In this document: positions 5,537 to 48,279 of the stretch, piece by piece
How positions within the stretch are numbered: position 1 is the stretch's first letter
How the letters are laid out: each line of letters begins with the position of its first letter
Source of the DNA: Candidatus Taylorbacteria bacterium RIFCSPLOWO2_12_FULL_43_20
Lineage (GTDB): Bacteria > Patescibacteriota > Minisyncoccia > Phycocordibacterales > HO2-43-120
Reading direction: 5' to 3'
NCBI GenBank assembly: GCA_001821295.1
Contig: MHSK01000017.1
Span: 31-64,030 of the forward strand
DNA length: 64,000 nucleotides
Notes under the pieces: model-generated
The model's database searches: none
What the model was told of the DNA's origin: nothing
What the model saw: the letters and a program-made list of their open reading frames with translations, nothing else
Translations under genes and position numbers: made by a program

Positions 5537-7267
5537 ATGGATTTAAACAGAAGGATCTTTGGAACCCGCCGTACCGGCTTTTCCGAGCATATAGTCTCGC
5601 GTTTTTCTCTTACTGAAAGAGTTATTTTTTATATCTGCGCCATAACCATAACCATAAGCTCTATTGTGCTGTTGTGGGGGGTAAATAATAACTTTCTGGT
5701 TCCTGTGCCCGCCAGAGGCGGTACGCTTGTTGAAGGCATTGTAGGATACCCGAGGTTTATAAACCCGATTTTATATTATTCATCAGCCGGTGACGACCTT
5801 GAAAAATTGATCTATTCGGGATTAGTGAAATCCATGCCAGACGGAACGCTGGTACCGGATTTGGCCAAGTCGTACGACATATCAGAGGACGAGCTCACAT
5901 ATACCTTCGTCTTGAAAGACAACGTCAAATTCCACGACGGCGAGCCGGTCACCGCCGAGGATGTTGAATTCACAATCAAAAGAGCGGCTGATCCTGGCAT
6001 AAAAAGCCCAGAACGTGTAAAATGGGAAGGTGTGAATGTTGAGATAGTTGATCCTAAAACGATAAGATTTACCCTGAAAAATCCTTATACTCCTTTTCTT
6101 GAGAACGCAACTCTTGGAATTTTGCCCAAACATATCTGGAAAAACGCCGATATTGAGCAATTTACGTTCAGTAAATTCAACGCCGAGCCCATTGGCACGG
6201 GTCCGTACTTCATTGACATTATCAAAAGAGACGTTGAGGGAATACCCCGGTATTACGAATTGAGATCATTCAAGGACTACGCTCTCGGCGAGCCAATGAT
6301 AGAAAAAATAGTAGTTAAATTTTATCCTACCGAAACAGCTGTGATTGAGGCGTATAATAAGGGCGAAGTTGAGAGCATCAACGCGGTGTCCGGCAAAAAT
6401 GTAGCGGATTTTGCCTCTGTGAATGGAGAGGTCAACAAAACTCCTTTGCCGAGAGTTTTCGGAGTATTCTTCAACCAGAATCAGCAAAAAATTCTTTCAA
6501 ACAAGGAAGTCAGAGAGGCGCTCAGAATGAGCGTAAACAAAAAAGAAATAATTGATACTGTGCTCCACGGTTACGGAACTCGGATTGCCGGTCCTTTGCC
6601 GCCCGGTTTCCCTCTTGTAACAGACGACGATGAGGATCGCGCCGAGGCGGATATTGATGGCGCCAGAGAGCTTCTTTCATCCAACGGGTGGACGCTTGAC
6701 GAGAACGGTTTCTTTGAAAAAAAATCCAAAACAGATTCAACTGCTTTGAAATTTACAATCTCAACATCCGATACTCCGGAACTTTCAGCCACGGCAAACC
6801 TGCTCAAGGAACAGTGGAGAAAGATCGGCGCGGACGTTGATGTAAAAGTGTTTGAATCGGGTGATTTCAACCAATCAGTGCTGAGGCCGAGAAAGTACGA
6901 TGCGCTCCTGTTTGGTGAAATCATAGGACGAGATCTGGATCTTTACGCTTTTTGGCATTCCGGAGAACGCAACGATCCCGGCTTAAACATAGCCATGTAT
7001 GCCAACACATCAGTTGACAAAGCGCTCTCATCAATTCGCTCCACATCTCTTGCCGATGAGAGGGCCGAACAATTATTAATTATTCAAAAAGAAATCAAAG
7101 AGGATATTCCCGCCATATTCATATACTCACCCGACTATATTTACGTTCTCCCTAAAAAAATCAAAAATTTCAAAATGGGAAAACTTATGGGACCATCAGA
7201 GAGATTCGCTTCTGTCAGTGACTGGTATATTAACGAGGATAAAGTCTGGAACATATTCGCAAAATAA
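5537..7267 (+). CDS. ABC transporter substrate-binding protein, family 5 (oligopeptide/nickel type)
   Basis: N-terminal TM anchor. LVPDLAKSYDISEDELTYTFVLKDNVKFHDGEPVTAEDVEFTIKRA is the SBP_bac_5 signature region. 576 aa. Confidence 0.7.
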   Translation: MDLNRRIFGTRRTGFSEHIVSRFSLTERVIFYICAITITISSIVLLWGVNNNFLVPVPARGGTLVEGIVGYPRFINPILYYSSAGDDLEKLIYSGLVKSMPDGTLVPDLAKSYDISEDELTYTFVLKDNVKFHDGEPVTAEDVEFTIKRAADPGIKSPERVKWEGVNVEIVDPKTIRFTLKNPYTPFLENATLGILPKHIWKNADIEQFTFSKFNAEPIGTGPYFIDIIKRDVEGIPRYYELRSFKDYALGEPMIEKIVVKFYPTETAVIEAYNKGEVESINAVSGKNVADFASVNGEVNKTPLPRVFGVFFNQNQQKILSNKEVREALRMSVNKKEIIDTVLHGYGTRIAGPLPPGFPLVTDDDEDRAEADIDGARELLSSNGWTLDENGFFEKKSKTDSTALKFTISTSDTPELSATANLLKEQWRKIGADVDVKVFESGDFNQSVLRPRKYDALLFGEIIGRDLDLYAFWHSGERNDPGLNIAMYANTSVDKALSSIRSTSLADERAEQLLIIQKEIKEDIPAIFIYSPDYIYVLPKKIKNFKMGKLMGPSERFASVSDWYINEDKVWNIFAK

Positions 7268-15279: not shown

Positions 15280-15423
15280 GTAACTGCTCACAAGACCGAG
15301 TGGTGTCATTCCCGCGAAGGCGGGAATCTAGGCCATATTTTGATCTGGATTCCCGTTTTCACGGGAATGACAGAAGAAAAGAAGGCTGTGGTGTGGCCAT
15401 TACTCGGTCTTGTGAGGAGTTAC
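15280..15423. mobile_element. MITE-A, full copy (TIR GTAACTSCTCACAAGACCGAGT; 8-bp TSD CGAGAAAA)
   Basis: TIRs flank two inverted gtcattcccgcgaa(a/g)gcgggaat hairpins. The flanking 8-mers cgagaaaa at 15272-15279 and 15424-15431 are identical. Spurious track ORFs 15210..15497 and 15256..15438 are translations of this element. Confidence 0.75.
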
Positions 15424-15506: not shown

Positions 15507-16751
15507 TTGATCTTTGACATGAAAGGAAAGATGCCAAAAGCAAACTATGTGATTGATGAGAGTGAAATGATATCGCCGTCGGTTTTTTTCATCTGGGTGA
15601 TAATTATTGATACGATACTGGTAATAACCGGCCTCATATTGTTGAGCCAGACCGTGTGGGTAATCAATGTCGGAAAATACATGTTAACACTGCTTGCCAT
15701 TTACCACCTAATAAGTATAGGCAAGCAGGACGCCGACAAGGTGGGTGTTAAATTATTCATGGGAAGGAGACTGTATCGCCTAGAACCCGGAATAGTTTTC
15801 GTGCCACGCCTGATCTGCAAACAAGTAACAGCTGCCAGGAGACAGATTCTTGTATTAGCAGGAACAGCCAAATCAGCTGAAGAGAAAGCTATACTTGAGT
15901 CGGAGATTAAAGAAGCAGAAAAAAGAAACGTCGAAGTCATCAGAATGCCCGAGCCGCAAAGAATTACCTTCGCTGAAGGACAAGATGACAAAAACACAGA
16001 CGAATTGGACAGGCGTATAACCTCTGACCCGATAGTGATCCTCATTTTTGTAGTTGAGGACATGTGGCCGTTTTGGGTGAAGATGGGCAACGTGTACAAC
16101 GCCGCATATATTCTTATTGAAACAGCAATAACGGTTCTGCAAGAAAAATGCGCAAAACTCACTGCGGCAAAAGCGCTTGAGAAAATTAATAGGCTGAATG
16201 AAGGCATTACGGAAAGAATCGAGGAGCTCATAGGAGAAAGAGAAACAAAAAACAAAGATGGCACACGTGATATGTGTCCATGGTGGGGCATAGACCTGGT
16301 AAGTGCCCGTGTAAAAAGCATGGGGTTTCCGAGACGAGTCAACGAAGCAATTGCAAACAAAAGGCAAACGATTATCGGCTCGCAAGGTCAAAAACTAAAA
16401 CTCATAAACGAAGGCACAGGTACAGCAGAGGCGCGCAAAAAATGGTTAAACGCCGAAGCTGATGGTCTTAAAAGGCAGGGGGAAATCGCCGAGAGTGAAG
16501 GGGGAAAAGTCGCTTATCAGGCACAAATCATGCGCGAAGCTTTGGAAAGATCAAACTACACGATATTTTCCGGACCCGCGGCTGAGAGCTTGATCAACAT
16601 GCAAGATATTGCAAAAGGGCTAGCGGTAGCGCGGCAAGAAGGAAAAAATATCACCGACAAAAAAACAGATGTTTCTTCCACTGATAAAAAGAAAAACCCC
16701 AAAACCTCGGGAAAGCCAAAAGAGGAAAAAAAAGGGGGGGAGGAGAACTAA
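15507..16751 (+). CDS. SPFH/band-7-like membrane protein with Lys-rich C-terminus
   Basis: N-terminal TM helices, then KLFMGRRLYRLEPGIVFVPRLICKQV and a long Ala/Glu/Lys-rich helical region resembling stomatin/HflK-type proteins. The start is uncertain. Confidence 0.4.
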   Translation: MIFDMKGKMPKANYVIDESEMISPSVFFIWVIIIDTILVITGLILLSQTVWVINVGKYMLTLLAIYHLISIGKQDADKVGVKLFMGRRLYRLEPGIVFVPRLICKQVTAARRQILVLAGTAKSAEEKAILESEIKEAEKRNVEVIRMPEPQRITFAEGQDDKNTDELDRRITSDPIVILIFVVEDMWPFWVKMGNVYNAAYILIETAITVLQEKCAKLTAAKALEKINRLNEGITERIEELIGERETKNKDGTRDMCPWWGIDLVSARVKSMGFPRRVNEAIANKRQTIIGSQGQKLKLINEGTGTAEARKKWLNAEADGLKRQGEIAESEGGKVAYQAQIMREALERSNYTIFSGPAAESLINMQDIAKGLAVARQEGKNITDKKTDVSSTDKKKNPKTSGKPKEEKKGGEEN

Positions 16752-16754
16752 ACT

Positions 16755-17414
16755 ATGGACTGGTCTATATTTTTAGCATTCCTAACTGCAGCCATCGCAT
16801 TCGCCGTATATATTGTAATCAAGAAGCCCTACGCCACGTCAAAACTCAAGAGTGTAAACGTGGCTCAAGGTGTTTCTATTGCAAAAAATACGGGAAAGAT
16901 TGTCGCGAAATTGCCGAGGATCATATTTTTGGCACTCGTTGGCATCTTCATCCTCACCATTCTCGGGGCTTTCACCATAGCCACAACGAGATGGTTATTC
17001 GGGAAGCCGTTTGGTCACTCTGAGGTCTATAGGACTGGCCCACTTGAAAATACGTGGTGGGCAATGTGGAAAAGTCCGCCGGGTGTGGTGAGCGTACCAT
17101 CGGAAATGGTTTTTCCGAACGTCACAGTGACGAAGTATGACAGTCGCAATCTGGTCTTTCAGATTCCGTCCGTCAATGACGACGGCACACAGATCATTGG
17201 AATGTACACCGGCCTGTCTGAAAAGCAGGACGGGCAATATGTCGGAATGTGGGCAGCCGTTACCAACTTCACTGCGTCAAGCGGCCCCATCTCAAGGTGG
17301 CACCTGTCCGGCTCTGCTGAGACAGGGTTCGCCGGCCAAATAGAAAACCCGGTAGAGACAAACTACTACTGGGCGGCATTCACACTAGTGCCGAAGTTCA
17401 AGATCAACAAATAG
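16755..17414 (+). CDS. hypothetical membrane-anchored protein
   Basis: 219 aa with two N-terminal TM segments; 4 bp after the preceding gene, so possibly an operon partner. Confidence 0.4.
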   Translation: MDWSIFLAFLTAAIAFAVYIVIKKPYATSKLKSVNVAQGVSIAKNTGKIVAKLPRIIFLALVGIFILTILGAFTIATTRWLFGKPFGHSEVYRTGPLENTWWAMWKSPPGVVSVPSEMVFPNVTVTKYDSRNLVFQIPSVNDDGTQIIGMYTGLSEKQDGQYVGMWAAVTNFTASSGPISRWHLSGSAETGFAGQIENPVETNYYWAAFTLVPKFKINK

Positions 17415-17467: not shown

Positions 17468-17615
17468 ATAGGACTTACGCGTTTCGTCATAATTTAAAAC
17501 ATTTCCCATCTATCATTCCCACTTTCTTCTGTCATTCCCGCGAAAGCGGGAATCCAGTGTATGCAGATAAAAACCTGGATTCCCGCTTTCGCGGGAATGA
17601 CACCACTCGGGGTTG
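17468..17615. mobile_element. chimeric MITE-like element (family-1 left TIR, double GTCATTCCCGCGAAAGCGGGAAT hairpin core, MITE-A-like right end)
   Basis: ataggacttacgcg...tgtcattcccgcgaaagcgggaatccag..ctggattcccgctttcgcgggaatgacaccactcgggg. Confidence 0.55.
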
Positions 17616-17627
17616 TGGACAGATGCT

Positions 17628-17990
17628 TTATTGCGGTTTTACTCTTGGTACACCTATGGTTTTATCGTCCGATATTCCAAAATCCTTCCTTATGAACTCT
17701 ACTATTCCCCATATTGAAACCATGATAAATAATGCTATTATACCCCCCGTCATTATTCTTTTACCTCTTGCTTTGGCCTCCTCGCTTCCCGACAAAAAAA
17801 TGTATTTAGCCACCCCCCAGAAAAAAACCAAGAGGGCAACTGCAAATACTATAGTGGTTAATTTACCAACAAGATTTCCGAATTGCGGAATCAGTGTGCC
17901 CAGTAAGGGCAGGTCGCGAGCATCATTCTGTGCGAAAACGAACACAGGAGATATTAGAGCAAGTGTAATTAATATACAAACTTTTTTCAT
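17628..17990 (-). CDS. TrbC/VirB2-like (T4SS-pilin-like) small secreted two-helix protein, paralog 1 of 7
   Basis: Signal peptide, then LLVFFWGVAKYIFLSGSEEAKARGKRIMTGGIIALFIMVSIWGIVEFI, which is the hairpin core shared by the array. Confidence 0.6.
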   Translation of the reverse strand: MKKVCILITLALISPVFVFAQNDARDLPLLGTLIPQFGNLVGKLTTIVFAVALLVFFWGVAKYIFLSGSEEAKARGKRIMTGGIIALFIMVSIWGIVEFIRKDFGISDDKTIGVPRVKPQ

Positions 17991-18044
17991 TTTTTGCGTA
18001 TTTTAACACAAAAACCGCGCAAGGCGGTTTTTGTTAGTTGTAAC

Positions 18045-18311
18045 CTAGAATCCCAGATAACTCGGCAAAGGAATTCCGAAGCTGTTCAAAACAATTCTGA
18101 TAAGAGCATAAACAACCATCATCACGAACAACCCTTTTATTCCCCAATCCATAGCCGACTTGCCTTTTTGCCGCCCCTCCTCGCTTGCCGAATGCGCAAT
18201 AAACTGCAAAATACCCCAGAAAAAAACCAGAAGAGCGACAGTGAACAGGAGAATTATTATCGGATTCAGTATATACTGATTAATCCGATTTAATAGCGGC
18301 TCTATGGTCAT
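18045..18311 (-). CDS. TrbC/VirB2-like pilin paralog 2 of 7 (short N-terminus)
   Basis: LLVFFWGILQFIAHSASEEGRQKGKSAMDWGIKGLFVMMVVYALIRIV. Confidence 0.55.
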   Translation of the reverse strand: MTIEPLLNRINQYILNPIIILLFTVALLVFFWGILQFIAHSASEEGRQKGKSAMDWGIKGLFVMMVVYALIRIVLNSFGIPLPSYLGF

Positions 18312-18327
18312 TAGTTAAAACGCAAAA

Positions 18328-18762
18328 CTATCTTATATTTACACCGGGAGCGTTCACATCTTGCGGATCTGTATCAATACCTGTTGCCTCTCCGATAAAT
18401 GTCACAATACCCCAGATTGCCGACATTATAAACAGAGCTATTATACCGCCAATCATTATTCTCCTGCCTTCCGCTTTAGCCTCTTCGCTTCCAGCGGCCA
18501 AAATGTATTTTGCGAGCCCCCAGAAAAAGACGAGAAGCGCGATAGCAAAGACGACAGGTATCAATGTGTCAACAATTTCTCCGAATGAAGTAGCCAACCG
18601 TTGTAAATTGGATAAATCCTGAGCCAATGCAAGCGCGGGCGTTAATAATACTGCACTCAATACAAGAACTTTTTTCATTAATATATTTATAGTTATTAAT
18701 AATATATATAGACCTTTTGTCTTAGGACTCGTCCAGAAATAAATTCCTCGGATTGTGTTCAA
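18328..18762 (-). CDS. TrbC/VirB2-like pilin paralog 3 of 7
   Basis: Signal peptide ending ALALAQ, then LLVFFWGLAKYILAAGSEEAKAEGRRIMIGGIIALFIMSAIWGIVTFI. The start may be the internal MKKVLVLSAV. Confidence 0.6.
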   Translation of the reverse strand: MNTIRGIYFWTSPKTKGLYILLITINILMKKVLVLSAVLLTPALALAQDLSNLQRLATSFGEIVDTLIPVVFAIALLVFFWGLAKYILAAGSEEAKAEGRRIMIGGIIALFIMSAIWGIVTFIGEATGIDTDPQDVNAPGVNIR

Positions 18763-19064
18763 TGCGCAGAGAATACGGTCTTCGCGATTGAGAAAAATCT
18801 TGAGGCGTACTCTAAGTACGATGAAAGATTTTGCGATTGAGCGGAGATTGTAGTCTATGATGCAGTGGACGCAAGGCGGGGGAGTTATTTATGAACGAGT
18901 CCTTAGTGTCAATTATACATAATGCCGAGTAGATATAACAAGCTAAACTGTGGATAATATCACGCATATCCCCTCACGGGGTAACTAGATCATTCATGGC
19001 TTTGAATATGGGTCAATAATTGCAATTACCCCATCAAGGGATACACGTGGATAATATAGCCGGA

Positions 19065-19502
19065 TCAATAATCAGCGCGGTAGCGAATGGGAAGATCTTG
19101 CCTGACCGGCTGACCGAAAATATCAGACTGAAGAAATTTAACAATCCCCCAGATTGAAGCCATGCAAAATAGAGCGATTACTCCCCATGTAAGAATTCTT
19201 CTGCCTTCCGCTTTTCCCTCATCGCTATCCGCGTGATAAAGATATCTCACCCCCCGCCAAAAGAAAAACAAGAGCCCCATGCTAAAAGCTATGGGTATCA
19301 AAAGGTCAACATTAAAAGCAGTGAAGAGCTTGATGAGATCCTGCAATGAATTCACGCCGAACGTCCCTTGGGCAAGCGCGACCGCAGGCACAACAAACGC
19401 CACGAGACCAGCCGCAAACCCCGCAAATTTAATTTTTTTATTCTTGTTACTTTTCATAAATTTTTCCGACCTACTCGGGTAAAAGCGGTAATCCGAAGTC
19501 AA
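19065..19502 (-). CDS. TrbC/VirB2-like pilin paralog 4 of 7
   Basis: Signal peptide AVALAQ, then LFFFWRGVRYLYHADSDEGKAEGRRILTWGVIALFCMASIWGIVKFL. Confidence 0.6.
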   Translation of the reverse strand: MTSDYRFYPSRSEKFMKSNKNKKIKFAGFAAGLVAFVVPAVALAQGTFGVNSLQDLIKLFTAFNVDLLIPIAFSMGLLFFFWRGVRYLYHADSDEGKAEGRRILTWGVIALFCMASIWGIVKFLQSDIFGQPVRQDLPIRYRADY

Positions 19503-19905
19503 AGCCGAATCCTCGAGCCAAAATTTCCATAATCGCCCAAATGGAAAACATAACGAAAAGCCCGATAATCCCCCATTTCATTATCATCTTGCCGTCAGCC
19601 ACTTTCTCCTCGCTGCCCGAGCCCATGATAAACATTGATAACCCCCATATGAAAGCCAAGAGAGCGCTCGTCGCCACGTATGGAATGGCCAAATCAACAA
19701 TCTCAACCGATATGCATATAAAGTCAACAAAATTCTGCGGCGGCTTGACACACGGTCCAAACACGGTCTGCGCTGAAGTGGCCGGCCCCGTTTGATAGGA
19801 AGGTCTATTGGCTACTTGGGCTCCTATATAGCCGGGCACGGCATATACGGCAAGCATAAGTGACAAAATGAATATTGGGAAAACCCTTTTGATTTTGAAA
19901 GTCAT
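19471..19905 (-). CDS. TrbC/VirB2-like pilin paralog 5 of 7
   Basis: LLAFIWGLSMFIMGSGSEEKVADGKMIMKWGIIGLFVMFSIWAIMEIL. Overlaps its neighbours by 32 and 4 nt (tight operon). Confidence 0.6.
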   Translation of the reverse strand: MTFKIKRVFPIFILSLMLAVYAVPGYIGAQVANRPSYQTGPATSAQTVFGPCVKPPQNFVDFICISVEIVDLAIPYVATSALLAFIWGLSMFIMGSGSEEKVADGKMIMKWGIIGLFVMFSIWAIMEILARGFGFDFGLPLLPE

Positions 19906-20333
19906 TTTTTTGCGATAGATTCCCGATCTATCATAATATTATATGCCGGTTTTGAAATCTGTTTTATTGTCCGTTCAATGCCCTCGGCGATAACCCAAGC
20001 GCCAAGCAAAATTGCCGTGCCTATCAAGGTATACAAAAACGTCGTTTTGGCCTTCTTCAACCGCTCCTCATTGCCCCCGGCTGTAACCATGAGAAAACCG
20101 GAGTAAATGACAAAAAAGACGGCCAGAACAGCGCCTATAGGCAAGACCACTTCATTTATAATGAGCTTAATGAGAGCGTAGAGATCGCATCCCCCTTTAA
20201 GCGGGTTGGGTATTCCTTCAGATCCCGCCGGAGGACACCCTGACGAACCTGAACCTTGAATGGCTTGCGCTCCCGAGACCAAAGGTATAGACAGAGCGGC
20301 AATCATCAAAAATATAAGCAAGGATTTTTTCAT
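19902..20333 (-). CDS. TrbC/VirB2-like pilin paralog 6 of 7 (canonical subtype)
   Basis: Signal peptide LVSGAQA, then AVFFVIYSGFLMVTAGGNEERLKKAKTTFLYTLIGTAILLGAWVIAEGI, matching the small-pilin pattern xGxxxxTAGGxxxxxxKAKxxIxxxxIGxxxxxxAW that I recall being annotated as T4SS pilin in CPR genomes. Confidence 0.65.
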   Translation of the reverse strand: MKKSLLIFLMIAALSIPLVSGAQAIQGSGSSGCPPAGSEGIPNPLKGGCDLYALIKLIINEVVLPIGAVLAVFFVIYSGFLMVTAGGNEERLKKAKTTFLYTLIGTAILLGAWVIAEGIERTIKQISKPAYNIMIDRESIAKK

Positions 20334-20394
20334 ATTTGATATTTCTAAAAATTATTTATTATATCTGGGACATGCGTGATTCGGCTTATTTAGA

Positions 20395-20455
20395 CCGTTC
20401 CCATCTGTCATTCCCGCGAAAGCGGGAATGACAGGGAGCGCGGGAATGACATCAT
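20395..20455. repeat. double-hairpin repeat fragment (GTCATTCCCGCGAAAGCGGGAATGACA x2)
   Basis: tgtcattcccgcgaaagcgggaatgacagggagcgcgggaatgacatc, lying between pilin paralogs 6 and 7. Confidence 0.6.
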
Positions 20456-20478
20456 GCGCATATGTCCTGTCAAAGTCA

Positions 20479-20871
20479 TTAATTAAGCAACATGAAGTCA
20501 TCAGCAGTACCCGGTTTCAACAGAGCATTAGTAATAGTATATACGATAAGCCACGCGCTTAAAATGAACAAGAAACCGATAAGAACTTTGCCGAGCATTT
20601 CCTTCGCTTTTTTTATCTGCCCCTCATTCCCTCCCGCGGTTAGCATCATGTAGCCAGACGCGGCAAAGACAAGCGCGGATATCGCTATTGAAATTTTAAT
20701 CAGAAAAGTGATGATGTTTTGTATAAGAATCACAGCTTGCTCAAAATCGCATTCTTCAGGCCCGTCACAAGGCACGAGCCCTGCTCCCAGGGCGCTTGAA
20801 GCAAGCAAGAAAAATAGTAAGCACGCCAATACTACGCTCGGCCATAATATTTTTTTTGTCTTTGCAAACAT
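20479..20871 (-). CDS. TrbC/VirB2-like pilin paralog 7 of 7 (canonical subtype)
   Basis: Signal peptide, then ALVFAASGYMMLTAGGNEGQIKKAKEMLGKVLIGFLFILSAWLIVYTI. Confidence 0.65.
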   Translation of the reverse strand: MFAKTKKILWPSVVLACLLFFLLASSALGAGLVPCDGPEECDFEQAVILIQNIITFLIKISIAISALVFAASGYMMLTAGGNEGQIKKAKEMLGKVLIGFLFILSAWLIVYTITNALLKPGTADDFMLLN

Positions 20872-20890
20872 ATGAGATAAATCCCCAAAA

Positions 20891-22198
20891 TTAATTCTGG
20901 AGCATTGCTCCTATCTCTTGAGACGCCCTCAAGACAGCATCTGATATTTTCGATCTGCCCGCCGAGACATCTTCTACCATGTTCTCGAAGACGGCGTTGG
21001 TCCTAAGCCCATCAGGATCAAGCCACGACTTGGAAATTATGGCGGAATCATAAAAAATGCTTAAGTCAGGATCATCCGGCTTGTCTCTGAGCAGATCACG
21101 ACGAAGAGGGGGCAAAGCGGCATTTTCTGAAAACATGGAAGCGAAGTCCTTTCCCGCTAAGACTACCAAAGTGCTGAAGGTGCCGGAAATATCAGAAGAA
21201 GATTTTAATATCGCCAGCGAATAGACACGTGCGCTCGTCACATTGACCTTGGCGTCTTGAAGCTGAGGAAAAACGGCAACATCAAAATTTAAATTCGGAT
21301 TTTTCAAACGTATTTCCGCTAATTCGCTCGCGTAACCGAAATAAACGGCAAGGTCTCCAGCTATAAATCGCTGTTGGGATTCAGGTAAGGATCTATTCCA
21401 AGAATAAGATGCTTTATTGGGGTTGGAAAAATCTGTAAAAAAAGCGATGACAGACTGAGCAGGGTCAACCCCTCCCTGTCTTCCTTTGTTCAAAACACTC
21501 CTGTACTCCCCTCCCACCTCTTCCACTATGGGCGTGCCGGCTTGAAAAAAAAGTGCTGAGAGAATACCTTTGGCATTGCGGACATTGGAAAATTCCCCCA
21601 GTGCCACAGCGCTTCTCGTAATATTGCCGACGCTATCTTTACGCGACAAGCTCTCGGACAATGTGAAAAATTCGGTCCAATAGCGCGGCGGCTCCGCTAT
21701 GCCCTCGCTGGCAAAAATGTCCTTATTCCAATACATGACCAAAGGATCGGCGTATAACGGAAAACCCAGCGATCCCTTTTCCACTAGAAATATTTCGGCG
21801 GCATCAGCGTAAAGATCTTTATAATCCCTTAGCGACAAGCTTTCGAAAGAAACAGGGTAAATTTTATCCGCGTGCTTCACGATAAAATCCTCGGGCAAAA
21901 TTACGGCATCAGGACCCTTACCGCTCGCCAGCGCCTCTATAAGATCGCTTTCAAACTCTCCTTTTCTTTTCTCCACATATGTTACGTTAAGCTGACCCTC
22001 CTTCTTCGTCCTCTGGAGGTTCAAAGCGCCGTAAGCGACATCAAAAGATCTTTTCGGAGCCGTTCCCCATATAGTTACTTCGGGAAAAATCACTTCGGAG
22101 CCCGACCTGACAGTGGAAAAAACTATAACGCCCACCACTATAAAAAAAGCAAATGCCCCCACCAGAATTATTTGAAAAGAGTTTGTTTTATTATCCAT
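20891..22198 (-). CDS. putative extracellular solute-binding protein (ABC-type, family-1-like), membrane-anchored
   Basis: 435 aa with an N-terminal TM helix and the size and aromatic-rich pattern of periplasmic binding proteins. Heads the same-strand block containing the pilin array. The assignment is tentative. Confidence 0.4.
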   Translation of the reverse strand: MDNKTNSFQIILVGAFAFFIVVGVIVFSTVRSGSEVIFPEVTIWGTAPKRSFDVAYGALNLQRTKKEGQLNVTYVEKRKGEFESDLIEALASGKGPDAVILPEDFIVKHADKIYPVSFESLSLRDYKDLYADAAEIFLVEKGSLGFPLYADPLVMYWNKDIFASEGIAEPPRYWTEFFTLSESLSRKDSVGNITRSAVALGEFSNVRNAKGILSALFFQAGTPIVEEVGGEYRSVLNKGRQGGVDPAQSVIAFFTDFSNPNKASYSWNRSLPESQQRFIAGDLAVYFGYASELAEIRLKNPNLNFDVAVFPQLQDAKVNVTSARVYSLAILKSSSDISGTFSTLVVLAGKDFASMFSENAALPPLRRDLLRDKPDDPDLSIFYDSAIISKSWLDPDGLRTNAVFENMVEDVSAGRSKISDAVLRASQEIGAMLQN

Positions 22199-22204
22199 AT
22201 CATT

Positions 22205-22330
22205 ATAGGACTTACGTGTTTGATGTCATTCCCGCGAATGCGGGAATCCAGAGTATGCAGATAGATCCTAGATTCCCGCTTTCGCGGGAATGACAGAAGA
22301 AAGCGGGAATGACATCAAACGCGTAAGTAC
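22205..22330. mobile_element. MITE-like element with GTACTTACGCGTTTGATGTCATTCCCGC TIRs and a double-hairpin core
   Basis: ataggacttacgtgtttgatgtcattcccgcgaatgcgggaatccag..tagattcccgctttcgcgggaatgacag..gggaatgacatcaaacgcgtaagtact. Confidence 0.65.
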
Positions 22331-22340
22331 TATTATTATC

Positions 22341-22865
22341 TCATTTTTTGAATATCAGTCCATAGTGATGAGCGCCTGCCTTGAAATCCCTCTCAAATGT
22401 AAAACCTTCTTTAACAGCGAGTTCACGCGCCTCGTCCTCTTTGATCACATGGTCAGCCATAGGTCCGATGCCTCCAAATGAATCTGACCAGTCCACCACG
22501 GCCAACTTCCCTCCGGTCTTGATTATCCTTTTGGCTTCGCGCAGAAAAGCTTCTTTCTCGGCGATTTGAAACAAGATATTGGCGGCAATAGCCACGTCAA
22601 CCGATCCATCCGCCAGCCGCGCTCCACCCACTTTCTCCAAATCACCGGGAATTACTTCAACATTGGGCAAATGAGACGCGTTAGCGGCGTTTTTCAGCTT
22701 GGCCAAAAGATCTTTCTGCACATCTATGGCATATACTTTTCCACCGTCACCCACAACGCGCGCGGCTTCCAATGAATAAAATCCTGAACCGGAACCAAGA
22801 TCGGCAATTTTCATTCCGTGTTCAAGCTGCATCTGTTCAATGTTTTTTTTAGGATCGGAAAACAT
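22341..22865 (-). CDS. class I SAM-dependent methyltransferase (type 11-like)
   Basis: Motif I KIADLGSGSGFYSLEAA, plus the acidic motif II and the motif III region. Confidence 0.6.
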   Translation of the reverse strand: MFSDPKKNIEQMQLEHGMKIADLGSGSGFYSLEAARVVGDGGKVYAIDVQKDLLAKLKNAANASHLPNVEVIPGDLEKVGGARLADGSVDVAIAANILFQIAEKEAFLREAKRIIKTGGKLAVVDWSDSFGGIGPMADHVIKEDEARELAVKEGFTFERDFKAGAHHYGLIFKK

Positions 22866-22964
22866 TACAAGTTAAATTCGAAAATCGAAATTCGAAATTC
22901 GAAAAATTAGCTTCAAATCAATAATCCTTTCTTTCGTGCTTCGGATTTTTAATTTCGTGCTTAT

Positions 22965-25433
22965 CTACAAGCATACTGCGCTCGCCAAATTGTCGCCGTC
23001 TCTCAATCTCATTATTCTAACACCTTGAGTCTGTCTGCCCAAGAGCGGAATCTCGGAGATTGATACCCTTATCACCTGACTCTTCTTTGATATAGCCACT
23101 AGCTCGTCCGTCTCTTCAAACACAACGACTTTTGACGTAATAATTTTACCAGTCTTTGACGTGACTTTCGCCGTCTTAATGCCTGACCCTCCTCTATGCT
23201 GGACCTTGTATTCTTTGAGTGATGTTTTTTTACCAAAACCATTTTCGGAAATTACAAGAAGGGTGGCTTCTTTATGTTCTCTTTTCATAACATCGGCCCC
23301 CACAAGAGCGTCTCCTTTCTTGAGCTTCATGGCGCGAACCCCGGAAGCCCCTCTTCCCATAGCCCTAATGTCCGATTCTTTGAATCTTATTGATTGGCCA
23401 AGCGCGCTCACGGCCACCACCTCGTCTCCTTTCTCAACGAAATTAACTGAAATAAGCTCATCGCCGCTGTTCAAGCCAATGGCAATTATGCCGTTCCGTC
23501 GGACATCGTGAAATGATTCACCCAGCACTTTTTTGCCCATTCCCTCCTTGGTCAACATAAAAAGACTAAGGCCGGATTTTTTCACCTCTTTCGGCATTGG
23601 CAGTATGGACGTGATTTTTTCTTCCTGAGACAGAGAAAGAAAATTCATAATGGATTTGCCTCGTGTTGCCCTTTTGCCTTCGGGCAACTCATACATTTTT
23701 ATTTGATACGCCTTGCCTTTGTCGGTAAAAAATAGCAAATCGCTGTGCGTGCTGGCGCGCAGAAAATAAGTGACGAAATCCTCCTCCTTGGCGTCCATAC
23801 CCACCACTCCCATGCCTCCCCTCTTCTGCTGTTTGTACTCTGCCGGTTCTGTGCGCTTTACATATCCTCCCGACGTAAGCACGAGTACGCTCTCCGTGTC
23901 CGGAATAACATCCTCGGGAGAAAAATCTTTCGGACTTGATTTAATTATTCTTGATACTCGCTCATCGCTGTATTTGTTCTTGATTTCCAATAACTCATCC
24001 TTCACAACTTCTCGGATTTTTTTCTCGCTTCCGAGTATCTCTTTGAGCTCGGAAATAAGAAGCTGTACCGCTTTCAAATCGTCCTCAATTTTTTTTCTCT
24101 CCAGACCGGCCAAACGCTGCAGCTTCATTTCCAATATCGCCGACGCCTGTCTGTCTGAGAACTTAAATTCTTTCATTAAACCTGCATGGGCTTCGGCAAC
24201 ATCTTTGGCCGCTCTGATGAGCTTGATAATACGGTCAATGTGATCAAGAGCTTTTTTCAAACCGAGAAGAATATGTTCTTTATCCTCCGCCTTTCTCAAG
24301 TCAAATTCCGTCCTTTTTTTGACCACCACCAAGCGATGAATAATAAATTCCTCCAAGATCGATTTGAGTGAAAGCGTTTTGGGTACCCCGTTCACGAGAG
24401 CGACGATGTTGAAATGGAACATTTCTTCGAGCTGTGTATGCTTGTACAGATAATTGAGTATTGACTGAGGATAAGCTCCCTGTTTAAGGTCAATGGCGAT
24501 TCTAACGTCAGCGGTTGACTCATCGCGCAAAGCCTTTATTCCTTCAATTTTTTTCTCTCTGACAAGATCGGCGATGCTCATAATTAAGTCAGCTTTGTTG
24601 ACCCTGTAAGGTATGGACGTGATTATTATGGATGATGAACTTGAGGAATTTTCCACAATCTCCGCCTCACCGCGCACCAAAACACCCCCTCTTCCGTTGG
24701 CGTATGCGTGATGCAAATCTTTCTCTCCGTAAATAATACCTCCCGTTGGGAAGTCCGGGCCTTTTATGTGCTCCAGGAGATCTTCCAAAGAAGCTTCTTT
24801 ATCTTTAATAAGATGAATGGTAGCGTCAATAACTTCAGCTAAGTTGTGCGGCGGAATATTCGTTGCCATACCGACAGCGATACCGAGCGTGCCGTTCAAA
24901 AGAAGATTCGGCACGGCGGAGGGAAGCACTGACGGCTCTTTGCGAGTATTGTCATAGTTGGTCCTCCAATCAACGGTTTCTTTTTCTATGTCGCGAAGAA
25001 GTTCGCTGGCAATCTTTGACATTCTGGCTTCAGTGTACCTCATGGCGGCGGCAGTGTCCCCGTCAACATTGCCGAAGTTTCCCTGTCCAGAAACAAGAGG
25101 GTACCTCATGGCGAAATTTTGCGCCATTTTCACCATAGCGTCGTAGACAGAAACATCTCCGTGCGGATGATAATTACCAAGGACATCTCCTACCACCACC
25201 GCGGACTTTCTAAACTTCGCGGCGGCAGTCAAACCCTTCTCATGCATAGCGAAAAGAATACGCCTATGCACCGGTTTCAGGCCGTCTCTCACGTCCGGTA
25301 AAGCTCTTGACGTAATGACAGACATGGCATAGTCAAGATAGGACTCCTTCATCTCCGCGATAATGTTCCTCGGAATCACGTTCTTCGCTATCTTATTATT
25401 CTCGTCGTCATTGGGTTTGTTTGTGTTTTTCAT
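22965..25433 (-). CDS. gyrA: DNA gyrase subunit A
   Basis: N-terminal [23 protein letters not shown], the catalytic Tyr region [10 protein letters not shown], and C-terminal beta-pinwheel repeats. 822 aa. Confidence 0.92.
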
Positions 25434-39409: not shown

Positions 39410-39512
39410 GTATCTGCTCACAAGACTGAGTAATCTGCTAACTACAGCCTTCTTTTCTTCTGTCATACCCGCGAAAGCGGGAATGACACCACTCGGCCTT
39501 ATGAGCAGATAC
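39410..39512. mobile_element. MITE-A, short single-hairpin copy (TIR GTATCTGCTCACAAGACTGAGT; 8-bp TSD ACTTACTT)
   Basis: Identical 8-mers acttactt at 39402-39409 and 39513-39520 flank the element. Confidence 0.75.
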
Positions 39513-40951: not shown

Positions 40952-41449
40952 ATGGCTAGGATAAACCAAAAAAAATACAAAAACGCCGTTCTTTTCTTTG
41001 CAAGAAAAATTCAGAACGGCACTTTGGGTAAGCTCAAAATGATGAAGCTTCTCTATTTTCTTGATTTTGATTTCTTTGAAAAATTCGGCCGTTCAATCAC
41101 CGGCGATGAATATCTCCGATTTGAAAATGGACCCGTGCCACATATGGGAGAAAAAATCCTCAAGGAGATGAACGGAAAAGAAATCAAAATCACCAAGCGA
41201 AAAGTTGGCGAGGGTTACAATGACCAAATGCATATTGAAGCGTTGGCTGATTTTGACGTAAATGTTTTTGAGAAAGAGGAGCTGCTCATGCTTGAAGAAA
41301 TTGCGAGCAAGTGGGAGAAATTTACTGGATCAGAAATGAAAAATGCCAGTCATGGCGAAGCCCCGTGGATTGCCACGAAACCGGATGATGTAATTGATTA
41401 TAATCTCGCGCTCTATCGGAACAAATACGGAGAGATGGCGAAAGTATGA
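40952..41449 (+). CDS. Panacea-domain (DUF4065, GepA/SocA-like) antitoxin-type protein
   Basis: LGKLKMMKLLYFLDFDFFEKFGRSITGDEYLRFENGPVPHMGEKILKEMNG matches the DUF4065 core pattern (L.KL.KLLYY.....L...G.PLF.E...AW.HGPV). Confidence 0.6.
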   Translation: MARINQKKYKNAVLFFARKIQNGTLGKLKMMKLLYFLDFDFFEKFGRSITGDEYLRFENGPVPHMGEKILKEMNGKEIKITKRKVGEGYNDQMHIEALADFDVNVFEKEELLMLEEIASKWEKFTGSEMKNASHGEAPWIATKPDDVIDYNLALYRNKYGEMAKV

Positions 41450-44778: not shown

Positions 44779-46317
44779 ATGCTTAAAACAAAGAAAAAGA
44801 GAATTTTCGTCATCATAGCCGCGCTCAGCATCATCGCGCTCGCCGTTTTCTTCGTATCCAGAGAGGAGGATCCTCTATCGCGCTATGAACTGGAGAACGC
44901 GCAACGTGGCGATATTGTTGAAGTCGTGAGCATAACCGGCACAGTGAAGCCCTCAAAGGAAGTTTCGCTCGGGTTTGTAAGGGCAGGCAAAATCAACGCG
45001 ATCAGCGTCAAAGTCGGCGATAAGGTCAACAAAGGTAAAGTGTTGGTCTCTATGGATGACTCTGATATTCGCGCCGAATTGTCACGCGCCAAAATCGCAT
45101 TAGAGGCGGAGAAAATCAACCTGGAAAATATAAAAAGGGCGGGAGCCAGAATAGCGAAAAACGGCAATAACATCTCACCCGATGAAGCCGCCGTTTTGAG
45201 CGCGCTCAATCAATACACAGAAAGTTTGAAGGAAGCGTATACGAAAACCGATAATACTGTAAGAACATACGTTGACAAGTTTTTCGGTGACTCGCGACAA
45301 TCCCCACATTTTGGCATAGAAATCCATGACGGAAACGCTAAATATTTTGTCAGTGGCTTACCTGATCAGCAGATCAGCATCAACCGCGAAAAGAGAATGC
45401 TCAACTCCGATTTAAAAATCTGGCGCGAAAGCACAGCGGAAAATTTTTCTTCCGATGTTGACGAAGTATTCGACATCGCTGAAACAACACTGATGAATGC
45501 CGATAGTATGGTCCAAGGCATCGGTGACATTTTGGATTCCAAAACATACACTTCCGCGACTGAAGAAAGCATATATAAAGGACTGCGGTCGGATTTGCAC
45601 ACCGCCCGCTCTGCCATAGTAAACGAATTATCGGCAATACGTCTCACAAAAAATAATTATCTTAAAACGTCGGCAAATTCAAGCCCGGAGGAAATCCGCC
45701 TTGCTGATCTCCAGGTGAAATCCGCTCTAGCAAACATCGCTAGCATTGAAGACCGCCTGAGCGAAACATGGATAGCATCGCCATTTAGCGGTACGGTGGT
45801 TGCCGTAAACGCCGAAACTGGAGAGATAGCTTCAACAAATTCCCCTATCGTAAAAATGATATCATCAGGGCAATACGAGATTGAAGCATTTGTTCCTGAA
45901 TCCGACATCGCAAAAGTCAAAGTAAAAGACACCGCCGAAGTTACACTTGACGCTTATGGAGAAGATGAGATTTTTGAAGCTTTTGTGGCAAGCATTGATC
46001 CTGCCGAAACCGCTCAAGAAGGCATTTCTACATATAAAATCAAATTGGTATTCGTCTCCGATGACTCAAGAATCTTATCCGGAATGACGGCCAACATAGA
46101 CATCTCCACGGAAAAGAAAGAAGACGTTATCAAGATTCCCGAGCGGGCTGTAATACGAGAAAAAGGGGAATATTTCGTAAGAGTTGTAACAGCGTCGGGA
46201 ACCGATGTGGAAAAAAAGAAAGTTGTTCCCGGTATAAGAGGCGCGGACAGTTATAGAGAGATCATTTCCGGAATCAAAGAAGGAGAACAGATTGTCGTGT
46301 TTGATAAACAAGAATAA
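44779..46317 (+). CDS. efflux periplasmic adaptor (membrane fusion protein, MacA/HlyD family) with long coiled-coil insertion
   Basis: N-terminal TM helix, a biotinyl/lipoyl-like hairpin VKPSKEVSLGFVRAGKINAISVKVGDKVNKGKVLVSMDD, and C-terminal beta-barrel/MP domains. 512 aa. Confidence 0.7.
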   Translation: MLKTKKKRIFVIIAALSIIALAVFFVSREEDPLSRYELENAQRGDIVEVVSITGTVKPSKEVSLGFVRAGKINAISVKVGDKVNKGKVLVSMDDSDIRAELSRAKIALEAEKINLENIKRAGARIAKNGNNISPDEAAVLSALNQYTESLKEAYTKTDNTVRTYVDKFFGDSRQSPHFGIEIHDGNAKYFVSGLPDQQISINREKRMLNSDLKIWRESTAENFSSDVDEVFDIAETTLMNADSMVQGIGDILDSKTYTSATEESIYKGLRSDLHTARSAIVNELSAIRLTKNNYLKTSANSSPEEIRLADLQVKSALANIASIEDRLSETWIASPFSGTVVAVNAETGEIASTNSPIVKMISSGQYEIEAFVPESDIAKVKVKDTAEVTLDAYGEDEIFEAFVASIDPAETAQEGISTYKIKLVFVSDDSRILSGMTANIDISTEKKEDVIKIPERAVIREKGEYFVRVVTASGTDVEKKKVVPGIRGADSYREIISGIKEGEQIVVFDKQE

Positions 46318-46318
46318 T

Positions 46319-47038
46319 ATGCCCCCGCTGATTGAGACAAGAAATATCTGTAAAGAGTACAGAGACGGGCAAACAGTTACGCCTGTTCTTGATAACATAT
46401 CACTTCAGATAAGGAAAGGAGAATTTGTGGCAATCATGGGTCCGTCAGGATCAGGCAAATCAACACTGCTTCATATTCTCGGTTTCCTTGACGCGTACTC
46501 GTCCGGAGATTATCTTTTTGAAGGAAAAGAGACATCATCTTACACGGAAGAAGAATCGGCAAAAGTGCGAAACCGGAAAATCGGCTTTGTTTTCCAGGCC
46601 TTCAATCTTCTTGCGCGCGCGAGCGTACTGGACAATGTTAAACTGCCCTTGCTCTATTCAGAAATAGACGAGAAAGAATGGGATGAACGGGCGAGAAAAT
46701 CATTGGAGTCCGTAGGGCTTTCGCATAGGATAAACCACGAACCGAACGAATTATCGGGAGGTGAAAAACAAAGAGCGGCAATCGCAAGAGCTTTGGTCGC
46801 AAACCCTGAAGTGATATTCGCCGATGAGCCGACAGGAAACCTTGATTCCAAATCGGGACAAATGGTCATGGAAACCCTCGAACAGGTCCACCAGAAAGAA
46901 GGGCGGACAATTATCCTCATTACACATGAGACAGAAACGGCGGAACACGCGGAAAGAATTATCAATATCAGAGACGGCAAGATTGAAAAAGACGAAAAAA
47001 TCGCGACGAGACGACTCGCCAAGACTTTCATAAAGTAA
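46319..47038 (+). CDS. ABC transporter ATP-binding protein (MacB/LolD-type)
   Basis: Walker A GPSGSGKST, signature LSGGEKQRAAIARAL, Walker B VIFADEPTGNLD. The track ORF 46292.. overlaps the adaptor gene; ATG 46319 follows its stop. Confidence 0.85.
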   Translation: MPPLIETRNICKEYRDGQTVTPVLDNISLQIRKGEFVAIMGPSGSGKSTLLHILGFLDAYSSGDYLFEGKETSSYTEEESAKVRNRKIGFVFQAFNLLARASVLDNVKLPLLYSEIDEKEWDERARKSLESVGLSHRINHEPNELSGGEKQRAAIARALVANPEVIFADEPTGNLDSKSGQMVMETLEQVHQKEGRTIILITHETETAEHAERIINIRDGKIEKDEKIATRRLAKTFIK

Positions 47039-47043
47039 CACGC

Positions 47044-48279
47044 ATGAGAACAGCCCATACATTCAAATCAGCGTTTAAATCCTTGAGGGCCAATAAAACC
47101 AGATCGGCCCTTACCATACTCGGTATCGTTATCGGAATAACGGCTATCATAATAGTGGTCTCAGTAAGCGAGGGAGCAAAAGGACTGATATTGAGCCAGA
47201 TCAAAGGGCTGGGCGCTAACATAATTTTTATTGAACCCGGCAGAGAACCCGAGGGACCTTCCGATTTCACTCAGATATTGTCAGACTCATTGAAAGATCG
47301 CGAGCTGAAAGCCCTGAACAAAAGAAACATACCCGATCTCAAAGATCTGGCTCCGGCCGTCATGGTGCCTGCCATATTGAGCCGCGGCGGAGAAACAAAA
47401 AACACAAACGTGCTCGGCACTTCTCCGCTTTATGCGGAAATGCTGTCCATTTTCCCGGAACAAGGCGTCTTTTTATCAGATGATGATGTTTTATCAGGAT
47501 CCAACTCCGTGGTTATCGGCTACAATGTCAAAGAAGAGCTTTTCGGCCCGTCCGACGCGCTAGGTGAGAATATAAAAATCAAAAATAAAAATTTCAGGGT
47601 CATCGGCGTCTTTCCGAAGAAAGGGCAAGTGGCTTTTTTTGACGTAGACAACGTGGCAATTATTCCATACACAACAGCCCTGAACTACATATCGGGTTCG
47701 CGGCATTACAATCTGATCATGGCCGAGATCAGCACCGACGAGGCAGTACCCAGAGCCGCCAAGGACATTGAAATAACACTCCGCAATCTGCACTCTATCA
47801 CCGATCCTGAAAAAGACGATTTTCACATTACGACGCAGGAAGATATAGTAGACAGAGTAGGCACGATCACGGGCGTATTGCAGACTCTTCTCGGATCGGT
47901 AGCGGCAATTTCTCTCATAGTGGGAGGTATAGGAATAATGAACATCATGCTCGTGTCTGTAACTGAAAGAACCAGAGAAATAGGACTGAGAAAGGCCCTA
48001 GGCGCTAGACCGGCTGACATACTTTATCAATTTCTTCTTGAAGCAGTGATGCTTACGATCATAGGCGGAGTCATAGGAATTATCTTGGGCGCTTTGTTTT
48101 CATTTACGGTATCCATTGTCTTGAGCAAAACACTTAACCTTGACTGGTCATTTGTTTTTTCCACGAAAGCCGCGGCTCTAGGAATAGCAGTGTCCGGAGG
48201 AATCGGCCTCATTTTCGGAATTTTCCCCGCCCGACGCGCATCCAAGAAAAGCCCTATTGAGGCGCTTAGATACGAATAG
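47044..48279 (+). CDS. ABC transporter permease, FtsX/MacB family
   Basis: Four TM helices with a large periplasmic domain between TM1 and TM2, C-terminal FtsX-like region. 411 aa. Confidence 0.8.
   Translation: MRTAHTFKSAFKSLRANKTRSALTILGIVIGITAIIIVVSVSEGAKGLILSQIKGLGANIIFIEPGREPEGPSDFTQILSDSLKDRELKALNKRNIPDLKDLAPAVMVPAILSRGGETKNTNVLGTSPLYAEMLSIFPEQGVFLSDDDVLSGSNSVVIGYNVKEELFGPSDALGENIKIKNKNFRVIGVFPKKGQVAFFDVDNVAIIPYTTALNYISGSRHYNLIMAEISTDEAVPRAAKDIEITLRNLHSITDPEKDDFHITTQEDIVDRVGTITGVLQTLLGSVAAISLIVGGIGIMNIMLVSVTERTREIGLRKALGARPADILYQFLLEAVMLTIIGGVIGIILGALFSFTVSIVLSKTLNLDWSFVFSTKAAALGIAVSGGIGLIFGIFPARRASKKSPIEALRYE

Follow-up and report, generated by a model that had tools for sequence, protein, structure and literature searches.

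The 64-kb stretch of DNA analyzed here (contig MHSK01000017.1; hereafter, the window) belongs to a metagenome-assembled genome (MAG) of Candidatus Taylorbacteria from a Rifle-aquifer groundwater metagenome, a lineage placed by NCBI in the Parcubacteria group of Patescibacteria. On its minus strand, seven genes for small pilin-like proteins, named g7 to g1 in the direction of transcription, are arrayed in tandem within 3.3 kb (17628-20871) and are preceded on the same strand by the genes for an S-adenosylmethionine (SAM) methyltransferase and a solute-binding protein (SBP). In our judgment, this locus rather likely represents, in Candidatus Taylorbacteria, an operon conserved among Parcubacteria/Paceibacteria that encodes a methyltransferase, an SBP, and five to seven proteins of the Pfam family PF18895 forming an envelope structure. 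By their profile matches, the seven proteins are VirB2-superfamily pilin-like proteins of the PF18895 type typical of Patescibacteria. Comparison with related loci showed the paralogs to be old, non-redundant, and kept in a fixed order. These conserved, ordered, non-redundant paralogs argue for a multi-subunit structure over antigenic variation. The binding protein, of the oligosaccharide type, shows genetic coupling to one particular subunit, to which it is covalently fused in several lineages. The locus thus offers testable leads on pilin function for the largest class, Paceibacteria/Parcubacteria.

Conservation of the cassette and its gene order

SBP homologs (about 45% identical) were aligned, and the alignment was run against one genome for each species. 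Relatives of the SBP were encoded in 581 stretches, of which the best 80 were retrieved together with 10 kb on each side where the contig was long enough. In 76 of the 80 species, the SBP gene was immediately followed on the same strand by two to eight open reading frames (ORFs) matching the pilin hidden Markov model (HMM), with a median gap of 4 nt between the SBP gene and the first pilin gene; the contigs of the remaining four end within about 570 nt past the SBP gene. The methyltransferase gene was located directly upstream of the SBP gene in 65 related loci (median gap, 9 nt). An earlier note on this DNA had described the array as unusual, a view that is not supported given the SBP-pilin arrangement in 76 of 80 species of the clade and published arrays of 2-11 genes (PMC12102498).

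Further upstream, gyrA was found in 67 loci, and a gene for a protein with a metallo-beta-lactamase fold was conserved in 50. In two loci (L085 and L086), the upstream context was exchanged for groES/groEL and LemA with the methyltransferase-SBP-pilin cassette intact, and therefore the conserved unit is the cassette and not the gyrA neighborhood. The downstream genes of the related loci vary and include those for IF-2, RbfA, SPFH-like proteins, and MurJ.

The positional analysis was performed on 62 arrays with at least five genes (five in 25 loci, six in 20, seven in 16, and eight in one), and the best match of each window gene was located in each array. The best matches of g7 and g6 were at positions 1 and 2 in 61 and 59 arrays, respectively, and that of g5 was at position 3 in 40. 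Those of g3 and g2 were at the penultimate and last positions in 48 and 51 arrays, respectively, and the terminal-type proteins had a median length of 90 aa. The best match of g1 was penultimate in 37 arrays; g1 is therefore a g3-like duplicate, and a gene beyond the short terminal type was present in only one of the 62 arrays. The usual order is a g7-type gene, a g6-type gene, one to four g3-like copies, a g3-type gene, and a g2-type gene. Position-specific signatures accompany this order, namely GLVxCxGxxxCxF in the g7-type proteins, with both Cys residues about 90% conserved, a conserved NPL motif in the g6-type proteins, and the leader MKK..P..AFA↓Q (arrow, cleavage site) in the g3-type proteins.

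In the window, all seven minus-strand ORFs and the 435-aa ORF upstream of them were present as the earlier note had listed them. The position-1 gene g7 (20479-20871, 130 aa) encodes an N-terminal Cys pair, PCDGPEECDF, and a GGNE..KKAK loop, and the position-2 gene g6 (19902-20333, 143 aa) encodes the NPL motif and a TAGGNE..KKAK loop. They are followed by the middle A-type genes g5 (19471-19905, 144 aa) and g4 (19065-19457, 130 aa from ATG, with the longest ORF extending to 19502). The penultimate-type gene g3 (18328-18678, 116 aa), a candidate for the major subunit with its own promoter, and the short terminal-type gene g2 (18045-18311, 88 aa, without signal peptide) come next. The extra copy g1 (17628-17990, 120 aa, 57% identical to g3) lies beyond the usual array end. 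The proposed range of gene lengths, 88-145 aa, was right for most genes, with the exception of g3 and g4, whose 144 and 145 aa correspond to the longest TTG-started ORFs. From ATG, g3 begins with MKKVLVL... and g4 with MKSNKNKK.... The public gene calls use the ATG start for g3 and retain the 145-aa form of g4, and the start of g4 is therefore ambiguous. Likewise, among the proposed overlaps of 4-32 nt, the 4-nt ATGA overlap of g6 and g5 is certain, and the 32-nt overlap of g5 and g4 becomes a 13-nt gap when the ATG start is used.

Family assignment and predicted topology

Six of the seven proteins passed the Pfam gathering score of PF18895 (T4SS_pilin, 26.6 bits), with 39.6, 33.0, 36.5, 36.4, 30.9, and 30.8 bits for g1, g2, g3, g4, g5, and g6, respectively. 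The score of g7 was 26.1 bits, 0.5 below the cut-off, and g7 still aligns with the other six. None of the seven reached the gathering score of PF04956 (TrbC/VirB2, 27.9 bits), the best being g4 with 19.1 and g6 with 18.3 bits. The assignment as TrbC/VirB2-like pilins made in the earlier note thus stands at the level of the superfamily and not at that of PF04956 itself. The position-2 protein of the related locus L085 scored 36.3 bits, above the PF04956 gathering score, which supports homology at the superfamily level only. Matches in NCBIfam were all sub-threshold and were to Mbov_0395, a pilin-like conjugal transfer protein of a mycoplasma integrative and conjugative element (ICE). The best PDB match for a profile of g3 and its homologs was the pKM101 pilin TraM (8cw4), a weak one (E=0.015). 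More than 100 homologs of g3 were found, nearly all with PF18895, and several of them are annotated as "pilin" in Parcubacteria MAGs. A search of the window with an HMM of the seven proteins revealed no further pilin copy, the next best ORF having an E of 0.15.

A signal peptide and a two-helix hairpin had been proposed for all seven proteins. Hydropathy agreed with this for six, and g2 consists of two helices without a leader, as do its orthologs in the 62 species. The leaders are of the Sec type and end in ...ALA↓Q or ...SGA↓Q (AxA↓Q-like site). The alignment confirmed the two hairpin variants described before, LLVFFWG...GSEE... in five proteins and ...TAGGNE..KKAK in g6 and g7. The AlphaFold2 (AF2) model of g3 (mean pLDDT, 85.9) contains helices at residues 2-18, 23-60, and 65-98, that is, a leader helix and a long two-helix hairpin. 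Two other identities were rejected. The proteins are not type IV pilins of type IV pili (T4P) or pseudopilins of type II secretion systems (T2SS), as they have no class III leader (G↓F/M-x-x-x-E) and have two hydrophobic helices, not one; they are not split ABC permeases either, as Pfam places them in the pilin family.

The solute-binding protein and its fusion to the pilin

The 435-aa ORF upstream of g7 (20891-22198, minus strand; public locus tag A3G52_00265) encodes an SBP with the domains SBP_bac_1 and SBP_bac_8 (PF01547 and PF13416), as had been proposed. It is of the oligosaccharide-binding MalE/CUT1-like type, and its nearest solved relatives bind manno- and malto-oligosaccharides, the best match being the mannobiose-binding protein 4r9f. 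The protein appears membrane-anchored, its N-terminal hydrophobic segment of about 21 residues looking like an uncleaved anchor. Beside the SBP domain, a CUT1 sugar importer has two BPD_transp_1 permeases and an ABC ATPase; neither a permease nor an ATPase was found beside the SBP gene in the window, and related loci contain no adjacent permease. The only ABC ATPase detected in the window belongs to a MacB/FtsX-HlyD set (44779-48279). A second solute-binding protein, SBP_bac_5 (576 aa, 5537-7267, plus strand), is encoded directly upstream of RNase J, also without adjacent permease or ATPase genes. The first gene of the cassette (22341-22865, minus strand) encodes a class I SAM methyltransferase of 174 aa (Pfam Methyltransf_31/11/25). 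No specific function could be assigned to it, as its best NCBIfam matches were far under the cut-offs with no equivalog among them.

The SBP is fused in frame to a g7-type pilin in several divergent lineages whose fusion proteins are 39-65% identical to each other. In the related locus L020 (protein P0233), there is no stop codon between the two; the signal peptide of the pilin is lost, and a linker of about 30 residues leads from "...LDLSLQN" to "FVKCDG...C-DF". A database search with this protein revealed further full-length fusions, P0234 (568 aa, 65% identical) and P0303 and P0307 (597 and 594 aa, 46% identical), as well as a partial SBP-pilin fusion sequence, P0236. Two representatives of clusters at 50% identity, P0353 (586 aa) and P0357 (579 aa, 39% identical, end-to-end match), are probably further fusions, judged by their length. 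In the AF2 model of one fusion (pLDDT, 86.8), the SBP domain and the hairpin were predicted with confidence and were joined by a low-confidence, disordered linker. The fusion preserves the expected topology, with the SBP outside, helix 1 running out-to-in, and helix 2 in-to-out.

Other cargo was found on the same hairpin. It forms the C-terminal module of a subtilase (Peptidase_S8; L040:4710-6344) and of a 2170-aa adhesin-like protein with He_PIG, cadherin, PKD, and fn3 domains (L048:9747-16259). Because the SBP, the subtilase, and the adhesin all sit at the pre-hairpin segment, this segment is an attachment site for extracellular cargo.

Promoters and DnaA-box-like motifs

The seven genes had been taken for one transcription unit, which now seems unlikely. 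The median intergenic gaps in the 62 arrays were 5-18 nt, with one exception, the gap before the penultimate g3-type gene, whose median was 104 nt (interquartile range, 87-124). In the window, this gap amounts to 386 nt, because an inverted-repeat element of 186 nt with 45-nt arms (18721-18906) is inserted in the g3 leader. An internal promoter region (18912-19054, minus strand) lies within this gap and contains a -35 element, TTGTTA (18936-18941), and, after a spacer of 18 nt, a -10 element, TATAAT (18912-18917). The promoter lies 3' of the DnaA-box-like 9-mer TTATCCACA (18949-18957), and a second such motif, TTATCCACG, is present at 19046-19054. Downstream of g2, a strong, intrinsic-terminator-like hairpin (18003-18040, minus strand; -15.2 kcal/mol, z -4.5) overlaps an extended -10 element (TGTGTTAAAAT) that precedes g1. 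On account of the g3 promoter gap, the hairpin after g2, and the extended -10 element of g1, the locus probably comprises several transcription units, and g3 and g2 are probably expressed separately, perhaps strongly. The best sigma70-like promoter match of the region, ATGACA-16-TATAAT (22229-22202), is located upstream of the SBP gene within a repeat element (22200-22300).

The motif TTATCCACA, which we take to be the classical consensus 9-mer of the DnaA box, occurs in two exact copies in the 64-kb window. A box with no more than one mismatch was detected in the corresponding gap of 35 of 59 species, compared with 2.6 in shuffles (maximum 8 of 200) and with 33 of 439 other intergenic regions used as a control. 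The boxes are placed 15-32 nt upstream of the -10 element and occur in both orientations, and their density along the loci has its main peak in the g3-type gap. The 9-mer thus stands beside a promoter and is conserved in relatives, as is expected at the sequence level for a DnaA-regulated promoter, and we infer a putative DnaA-linked control of the g3-type promoter. A weaker peak of DnaA-box-like motifs was observed upstream of the methyltransferase gene (bin -1000 to -500; 0.31 per locus vs about 0.14 in the background), the window copy being TTATCTACA at 22961-22969 (region 22866-22969).

The g3-type leaders share a further motif, AAAAATGGTCGTT...ATTATTA, located 20-50 nt upstream of the start codon (leaders L005-L084) and about 8-fold enriched over other upstream regions; its window copy is the conserved AAAGGTC...ATTATTA at 18697-18717 (minus strand), 5' of the g3 start codon. 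The core GGTCGT was found 30-53 nt 5' of the start in 19 of 60 species, compared with 25 of 603 control upstream regions. No Shine-Dalgarno sequence was evident in the g3-type leaders. A structured RNA was also considered for the g3 leader and was rejected, since RNAalifold on 23 leaders predicted no pairs; GGTCGTT...ATTATTA is a linear motif. In the window, the g3 leader including the inserted element folds as one long hairpin (-61.2 kcal/mol, z -6.5).

Palindromic repeats and genomic surroundings

The array had been described as broken by miniature inverted-repeat transposable elements (MITEs). The elements are real; however, they are incidental members of a dispersed palindromic family resembling MITEs and repetitive extragenic palindromic (REP) sequences and are not specific to the array. 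The unit of this family, TCATTCCCGCGAAAGCGGGAATGA, occurs singly or in inverted pairs. Ten hairpin units were found in the window, all of them intergenic, and none in shuffles. On the basis of TCATTCCCGCGAAAGCGGGAATGA, palindromic units are located at 15306-15329, 17532-17600, 20408-20431, 22226-22293, 39463-39486, 54289-54312, and 55912-55980. Three insertions lie at the array locus. A paired element is inserted between the methyltransferase and SBP genes (22200-22300) and carries the promoter-like match described above. A single REP-like hairpin with a perfect 13-bp stem (20395-20455; -30.9 kcal/mol, z -5.0) separates g7 from g6, where the gap in other species has a median of 11 nt. A second paired element (17468-17615) closes the locus; its hairpin is about 70 nt long (-57.8 kcal/mol, z -10.6) and leads into a U-run. 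Paired copies in general fold at about -58 kcal/mol. Some palindromic copies have an outward-facing, promoter-like end, ACGCGTAAGTCCTATAAT (22200-22230 and 17470-17490). The element in the g3 leader is window-specific and has no other copy in the window. Rfam yielded only sub-threshold matches at the locus, all from the palindromic repeats, and only three tRNAs in the whole window.

Two genes for membrane proteins converge on the array end, one at 15507-16751 (plus strand; 414 aa) with a weak match to SPFH/Band 7 and the other at 16755-17414 (plus strand; 219 aa) without an assigned family; SPFH-like genes occupy the equivalent convergent position in about 36 related loci. The housekeeping genes of the window include those for RNase J, S1, Pth, signal peptidase, HisRS, FtsA/FtsZ, MreB/MreC, penicillin-binding proteins (PBPs), and aminoacyl-tRNA synthetases, and GyrA was identified via the public gene calls. 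A gene for a SocA/Panacea-domain antitoxin-like protein (40952-41449, plus strand) is followed by a 113-aa ORF without a family match, and the two may form a toxin-antitoxin pair.

Interpretation of the locus

According to the mechanism proposed here, the pilin-like proteins would assemble into one heteromeric envelope structure. The g3-type protein would be its abundant core subunit, and the other paralogs would be specialized subunits of low copy number that display modules for binding or enzymatic activity at their extracellular N-termini. In the case of the g7-type subunit, this module would be the SBP, which would bind glycans and be either attached to the subunit or docked on it. Assembly would probably proceed via the VirB4-type type IV secretion system (T4SS) that most Patescibacteria encode elsewhere, and the structure may serve host contact, the capture of host-derived glycans, or both. 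Through DnaA, the core subunit may be expressed in accordance with the replication state. If the leads provided by the locus hold, they point to host glycans as the target that the structure contacts and to the replication state as what sets the time of its production.

Several observations weigh against this proposal. The Pfam scan covered the 40 larger ORFs of the window, with gyrA and a few shorter ORFs (e.g., 53466-53903, 56020-56490, and 63467-63958) outside the scan. Among these 40 ORFs, there was no T4SS or T4P ATPase, no secretin, and no VirB4, VirB6, or VirD4, in agreement with the earlier statements that the window contains no assembly ATPase or secretin and that the partner machinery is encoded elsewhere. 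A T4SS component was found neither in the recurrent flank clusters of the 80 loci nor in 10 of the 43 other flank ORFs of at least 430 aa. These 10 encode a P-type ATPase, ClpB, a tRNA synthetase, RNase J, three surface- or phage-tail-like proteins, and three proteins without a Pfam match, and the other 33 were outside the scan. A T4SS pilin is expected to be encoded together with, or to depend on, machinery of the VirB4/VirB6 type, and such machinery was found neither among the scanned ORFs of the window nor in the sampled flanks. Fold searches with the hairpin model of g3 returned non-specific matches, the fold being very simple. The g3-type protein is assigned as the major subunit from the placement of its promoter only. 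The DnaA-box-like motif occurs in both orientations, and another protein than DnaA may recognize it. Given its anchor-like SBP segment, a fused SBP-pilin would be fixed in the membrane by both of its ends, and the extrusion of a long pilus is difficult to square with such an arrangement. The order gyrA-methyltransferase-SBP-pilin could also partly reflect the general synteny of the clade.

The main rival explanation, which we regard as a serious one and yet unlikely, is that the hairpins form a heteromeric platform or pore resident in the cytoplasmic membrane, not a pilus. Such a scaffold would tether the SBP and, in relatives, proteases or adhesins at the cell surface, and it might recognize or import host glycans in an SBP-dependent manner without a T4SS. 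It agrees with the length of the N-terminal hydrophobic segment of the SBP, which is typical of an anchor, and with the three-helix topology of the fusions, anchored at both ends. The orphan state of the SBP, with no CUT1 permease or ATPase beside it, and the sampled flanks of 80 species, free of T4SS genes, point in the same direction, as does the use of the hairpin as a C-terminal module by the 2170-aa adhesin and the subtilase. However, we know of no precedent for VirB2-like proteins acting as a transporter, and the family is homologous to VirB2/TrbC pilins. Moreover, such arrays are located inside an essential T4SS locus in Saccharibacteria (PMC10633639), and a pilin gene is found near virB4 in 1,135 of 1,948 assemblies (PMC12102498).

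We consider it improbable that the paralogs are interchangeable variants of a major pilin that diversify antigenicity or host range, as proposed for the VirB2 paralogs of Bartonella and Anaplasma. The same idea was put forward for the arrays of Patescibacteria (PMC12102498), and the earlier note had likewise read the pre-hairpin segments as hypervariable. The local pairwise identity within the array is as low as 22-57%, the number of mid-array copies varies from one to four, and g1 is a lineage-specific extra copy, all of which would suit diversification. Among orthologs, the mature N- and C-terminal segments are also less conserved than the hairpin (about 20-30% for both ends and for the N-terminal segment, vs 36-42%). 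On the other hand, the pilin orthologs are 35-43% identical, compared with about 45% for the SBP, and the pilins therefore evolve only slightly faster than the SBP. The paralogs are ancient and positionally orthologous in a fixed order across the 62 species, which argues against the hypervariable reading. The N-terminal segments do not vary freely, since motifs specific to the position, the Cys pair of the g7 type and the NPL motif of the g6 type, are kept. In addition, proteins with and without a leader, and in relatives an SBP-fused one, occur together in one array, and no features of recombination or silent cassettes were seen. The exposed ends thus evolve faster than the hairpin, but their differences between paralogs stem from the ancient origin of the paralogs and not from hypervariability.

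The weakest alternative, which we regard as highly improbable, is that the genes for the SBP, the methyltransferase, and the pilins are neighbors only through inherited synteny, with no functional connection, and that the partner of the SBP is an ordinary ABC importer with genes elsewhere. In its favor, the upstream conservation of gyrA and the metallo-beta-lactamase-fold gene makes the whole block syntenic, and the solved SBPs nearest to this one belong to ordinary sugar ABC systems. Against it stand the in-frame fusions in lineages as divergent as stated above, the intergenic gaps of 4-9 nt, and the retention of the cassette where groES/groEL replaces the gyrA context.

A broader idea may be put forward, which we offer as a speculation of rather low probability. 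In Parcubacteria, the VirB2-like hairpin might be more than a pilin of the conjugative type, namely a general anchor and assembly module by which a surface organelle of several different subunits displays extracellular cargo, the SBP in this genome and a subtilase or giant cadherin/Ig adhesins in relatives. On this view, the methyltransferase-SBP-pilin operon would encode a device for host-glycan capture or adhesion with a DnaA-switched core subunit, linking host attachment or feeding to the replication cycle of these obligate epibionts.

Comparison with known systems

The array itself is already known in kind (Wang 2023; Quinonero-Coronel 2025). When Quinonero-Coronel et al. searched 3,035 genomes with PF18895 and PF04956, 383 assemblies were found to contain a total of 441 arrays, each with 2-11 pilin genes; the arrays were most abundant in Microgenomatia and Saccharimonadia, and an SBP is not mentioned (PMC12102498). 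The array findings were repeated in a 2025 review (PMC12857230). The seven divergent genes of the window are within this range and correspond to the published description of VirB2 arrays of Patescibacteria, namely at least two VirB2-like genes in tandem, or with one non-pilin gene between them, and with high divergence. Their identity of 22-57%, calculated over local alignments, resembles the within-array mean of 25% and maximum of 54% reported there (PMC12102498). Like the VirB2-like arrays of Patescibacteria such as that of Southlakia epibionticum ML1 (SEML1_0006-0019), the array is tandem, chromosomal, divergent in sequence, structurally alike, and of the PF18895 family. In S. epibionticum, the pilin arrays belong to an essential T4SS (PMC10633639), and the array lies inside the T4SS gene cluster. 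In contrast, no T4SS gene was found in the 64-kb window or the sampled flanks, a methyltransferase gene and an SBP gene precede the array, and SBP-pilin fusions occur in relatives. We found no report in the searchable literature of the coupling to the SBP and the methyltransferase, the fixed gene order, the cargo fusions, or the DnaA-box promoter. In the enrichment-culture metatranscriptomes of three Patescibacteria, T4SS pilins ranked with the genes of unknown function that had the highest expression (Ca. Yanofskyibacterium and Ca. Microsyncoccus; PMC10936435). In the sole genetically tested Patescibacterium, both the T4SS and the accompanying pilin array proved essential, with their function unknown (PMC10633639, PMC11665869, PMC12857230), and extracellular polymerization of a pilus is unproven for any Patescibacteria (PMC12857230).

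The proteins resemble the conjugative pilins TrbC, VirB2, TraA, and TraM in their long Sec-type leader, two-helix hydrophobic hairpin, and short polar loop, and the profile matches to this group are weak and consistent. Unlike canonical conjugative pilins, they belong to a monoderm host with no adjacent VirB3-B11 set and no relaxase, they form multiple non-redundant paralogs, and some relatives carry large N-terminal cargo domains. The SBP resembles those of the CUT1 importers (MalEFGK2 and UgpBAEC) in its SBP_bac_1/8 domains and in its nearest structures, which bind manno- and malto-oligosaccharides. Unlike in CUT1 importers, no permease or ATPase gene is adjacent, pilin-like genes follow and are sometimes fused to it, and a transmembrane helix appears to replace the lipobox as the anchor.

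Type IV pili and the pseudopili of type II secretion consist of an abundant core subunit and of low-copy, conserved, non-interchangeable subunits, some of which carry bulky adhesive domains. The array differs from them in that fold and biogenesis are unrelated, with Sec-type A↓Q leaders in place of a class III leader (G↓FxxxE) and no dependence on PilD. In its proposed subunit logic, it resembles the minor and modular pilins of these systems.

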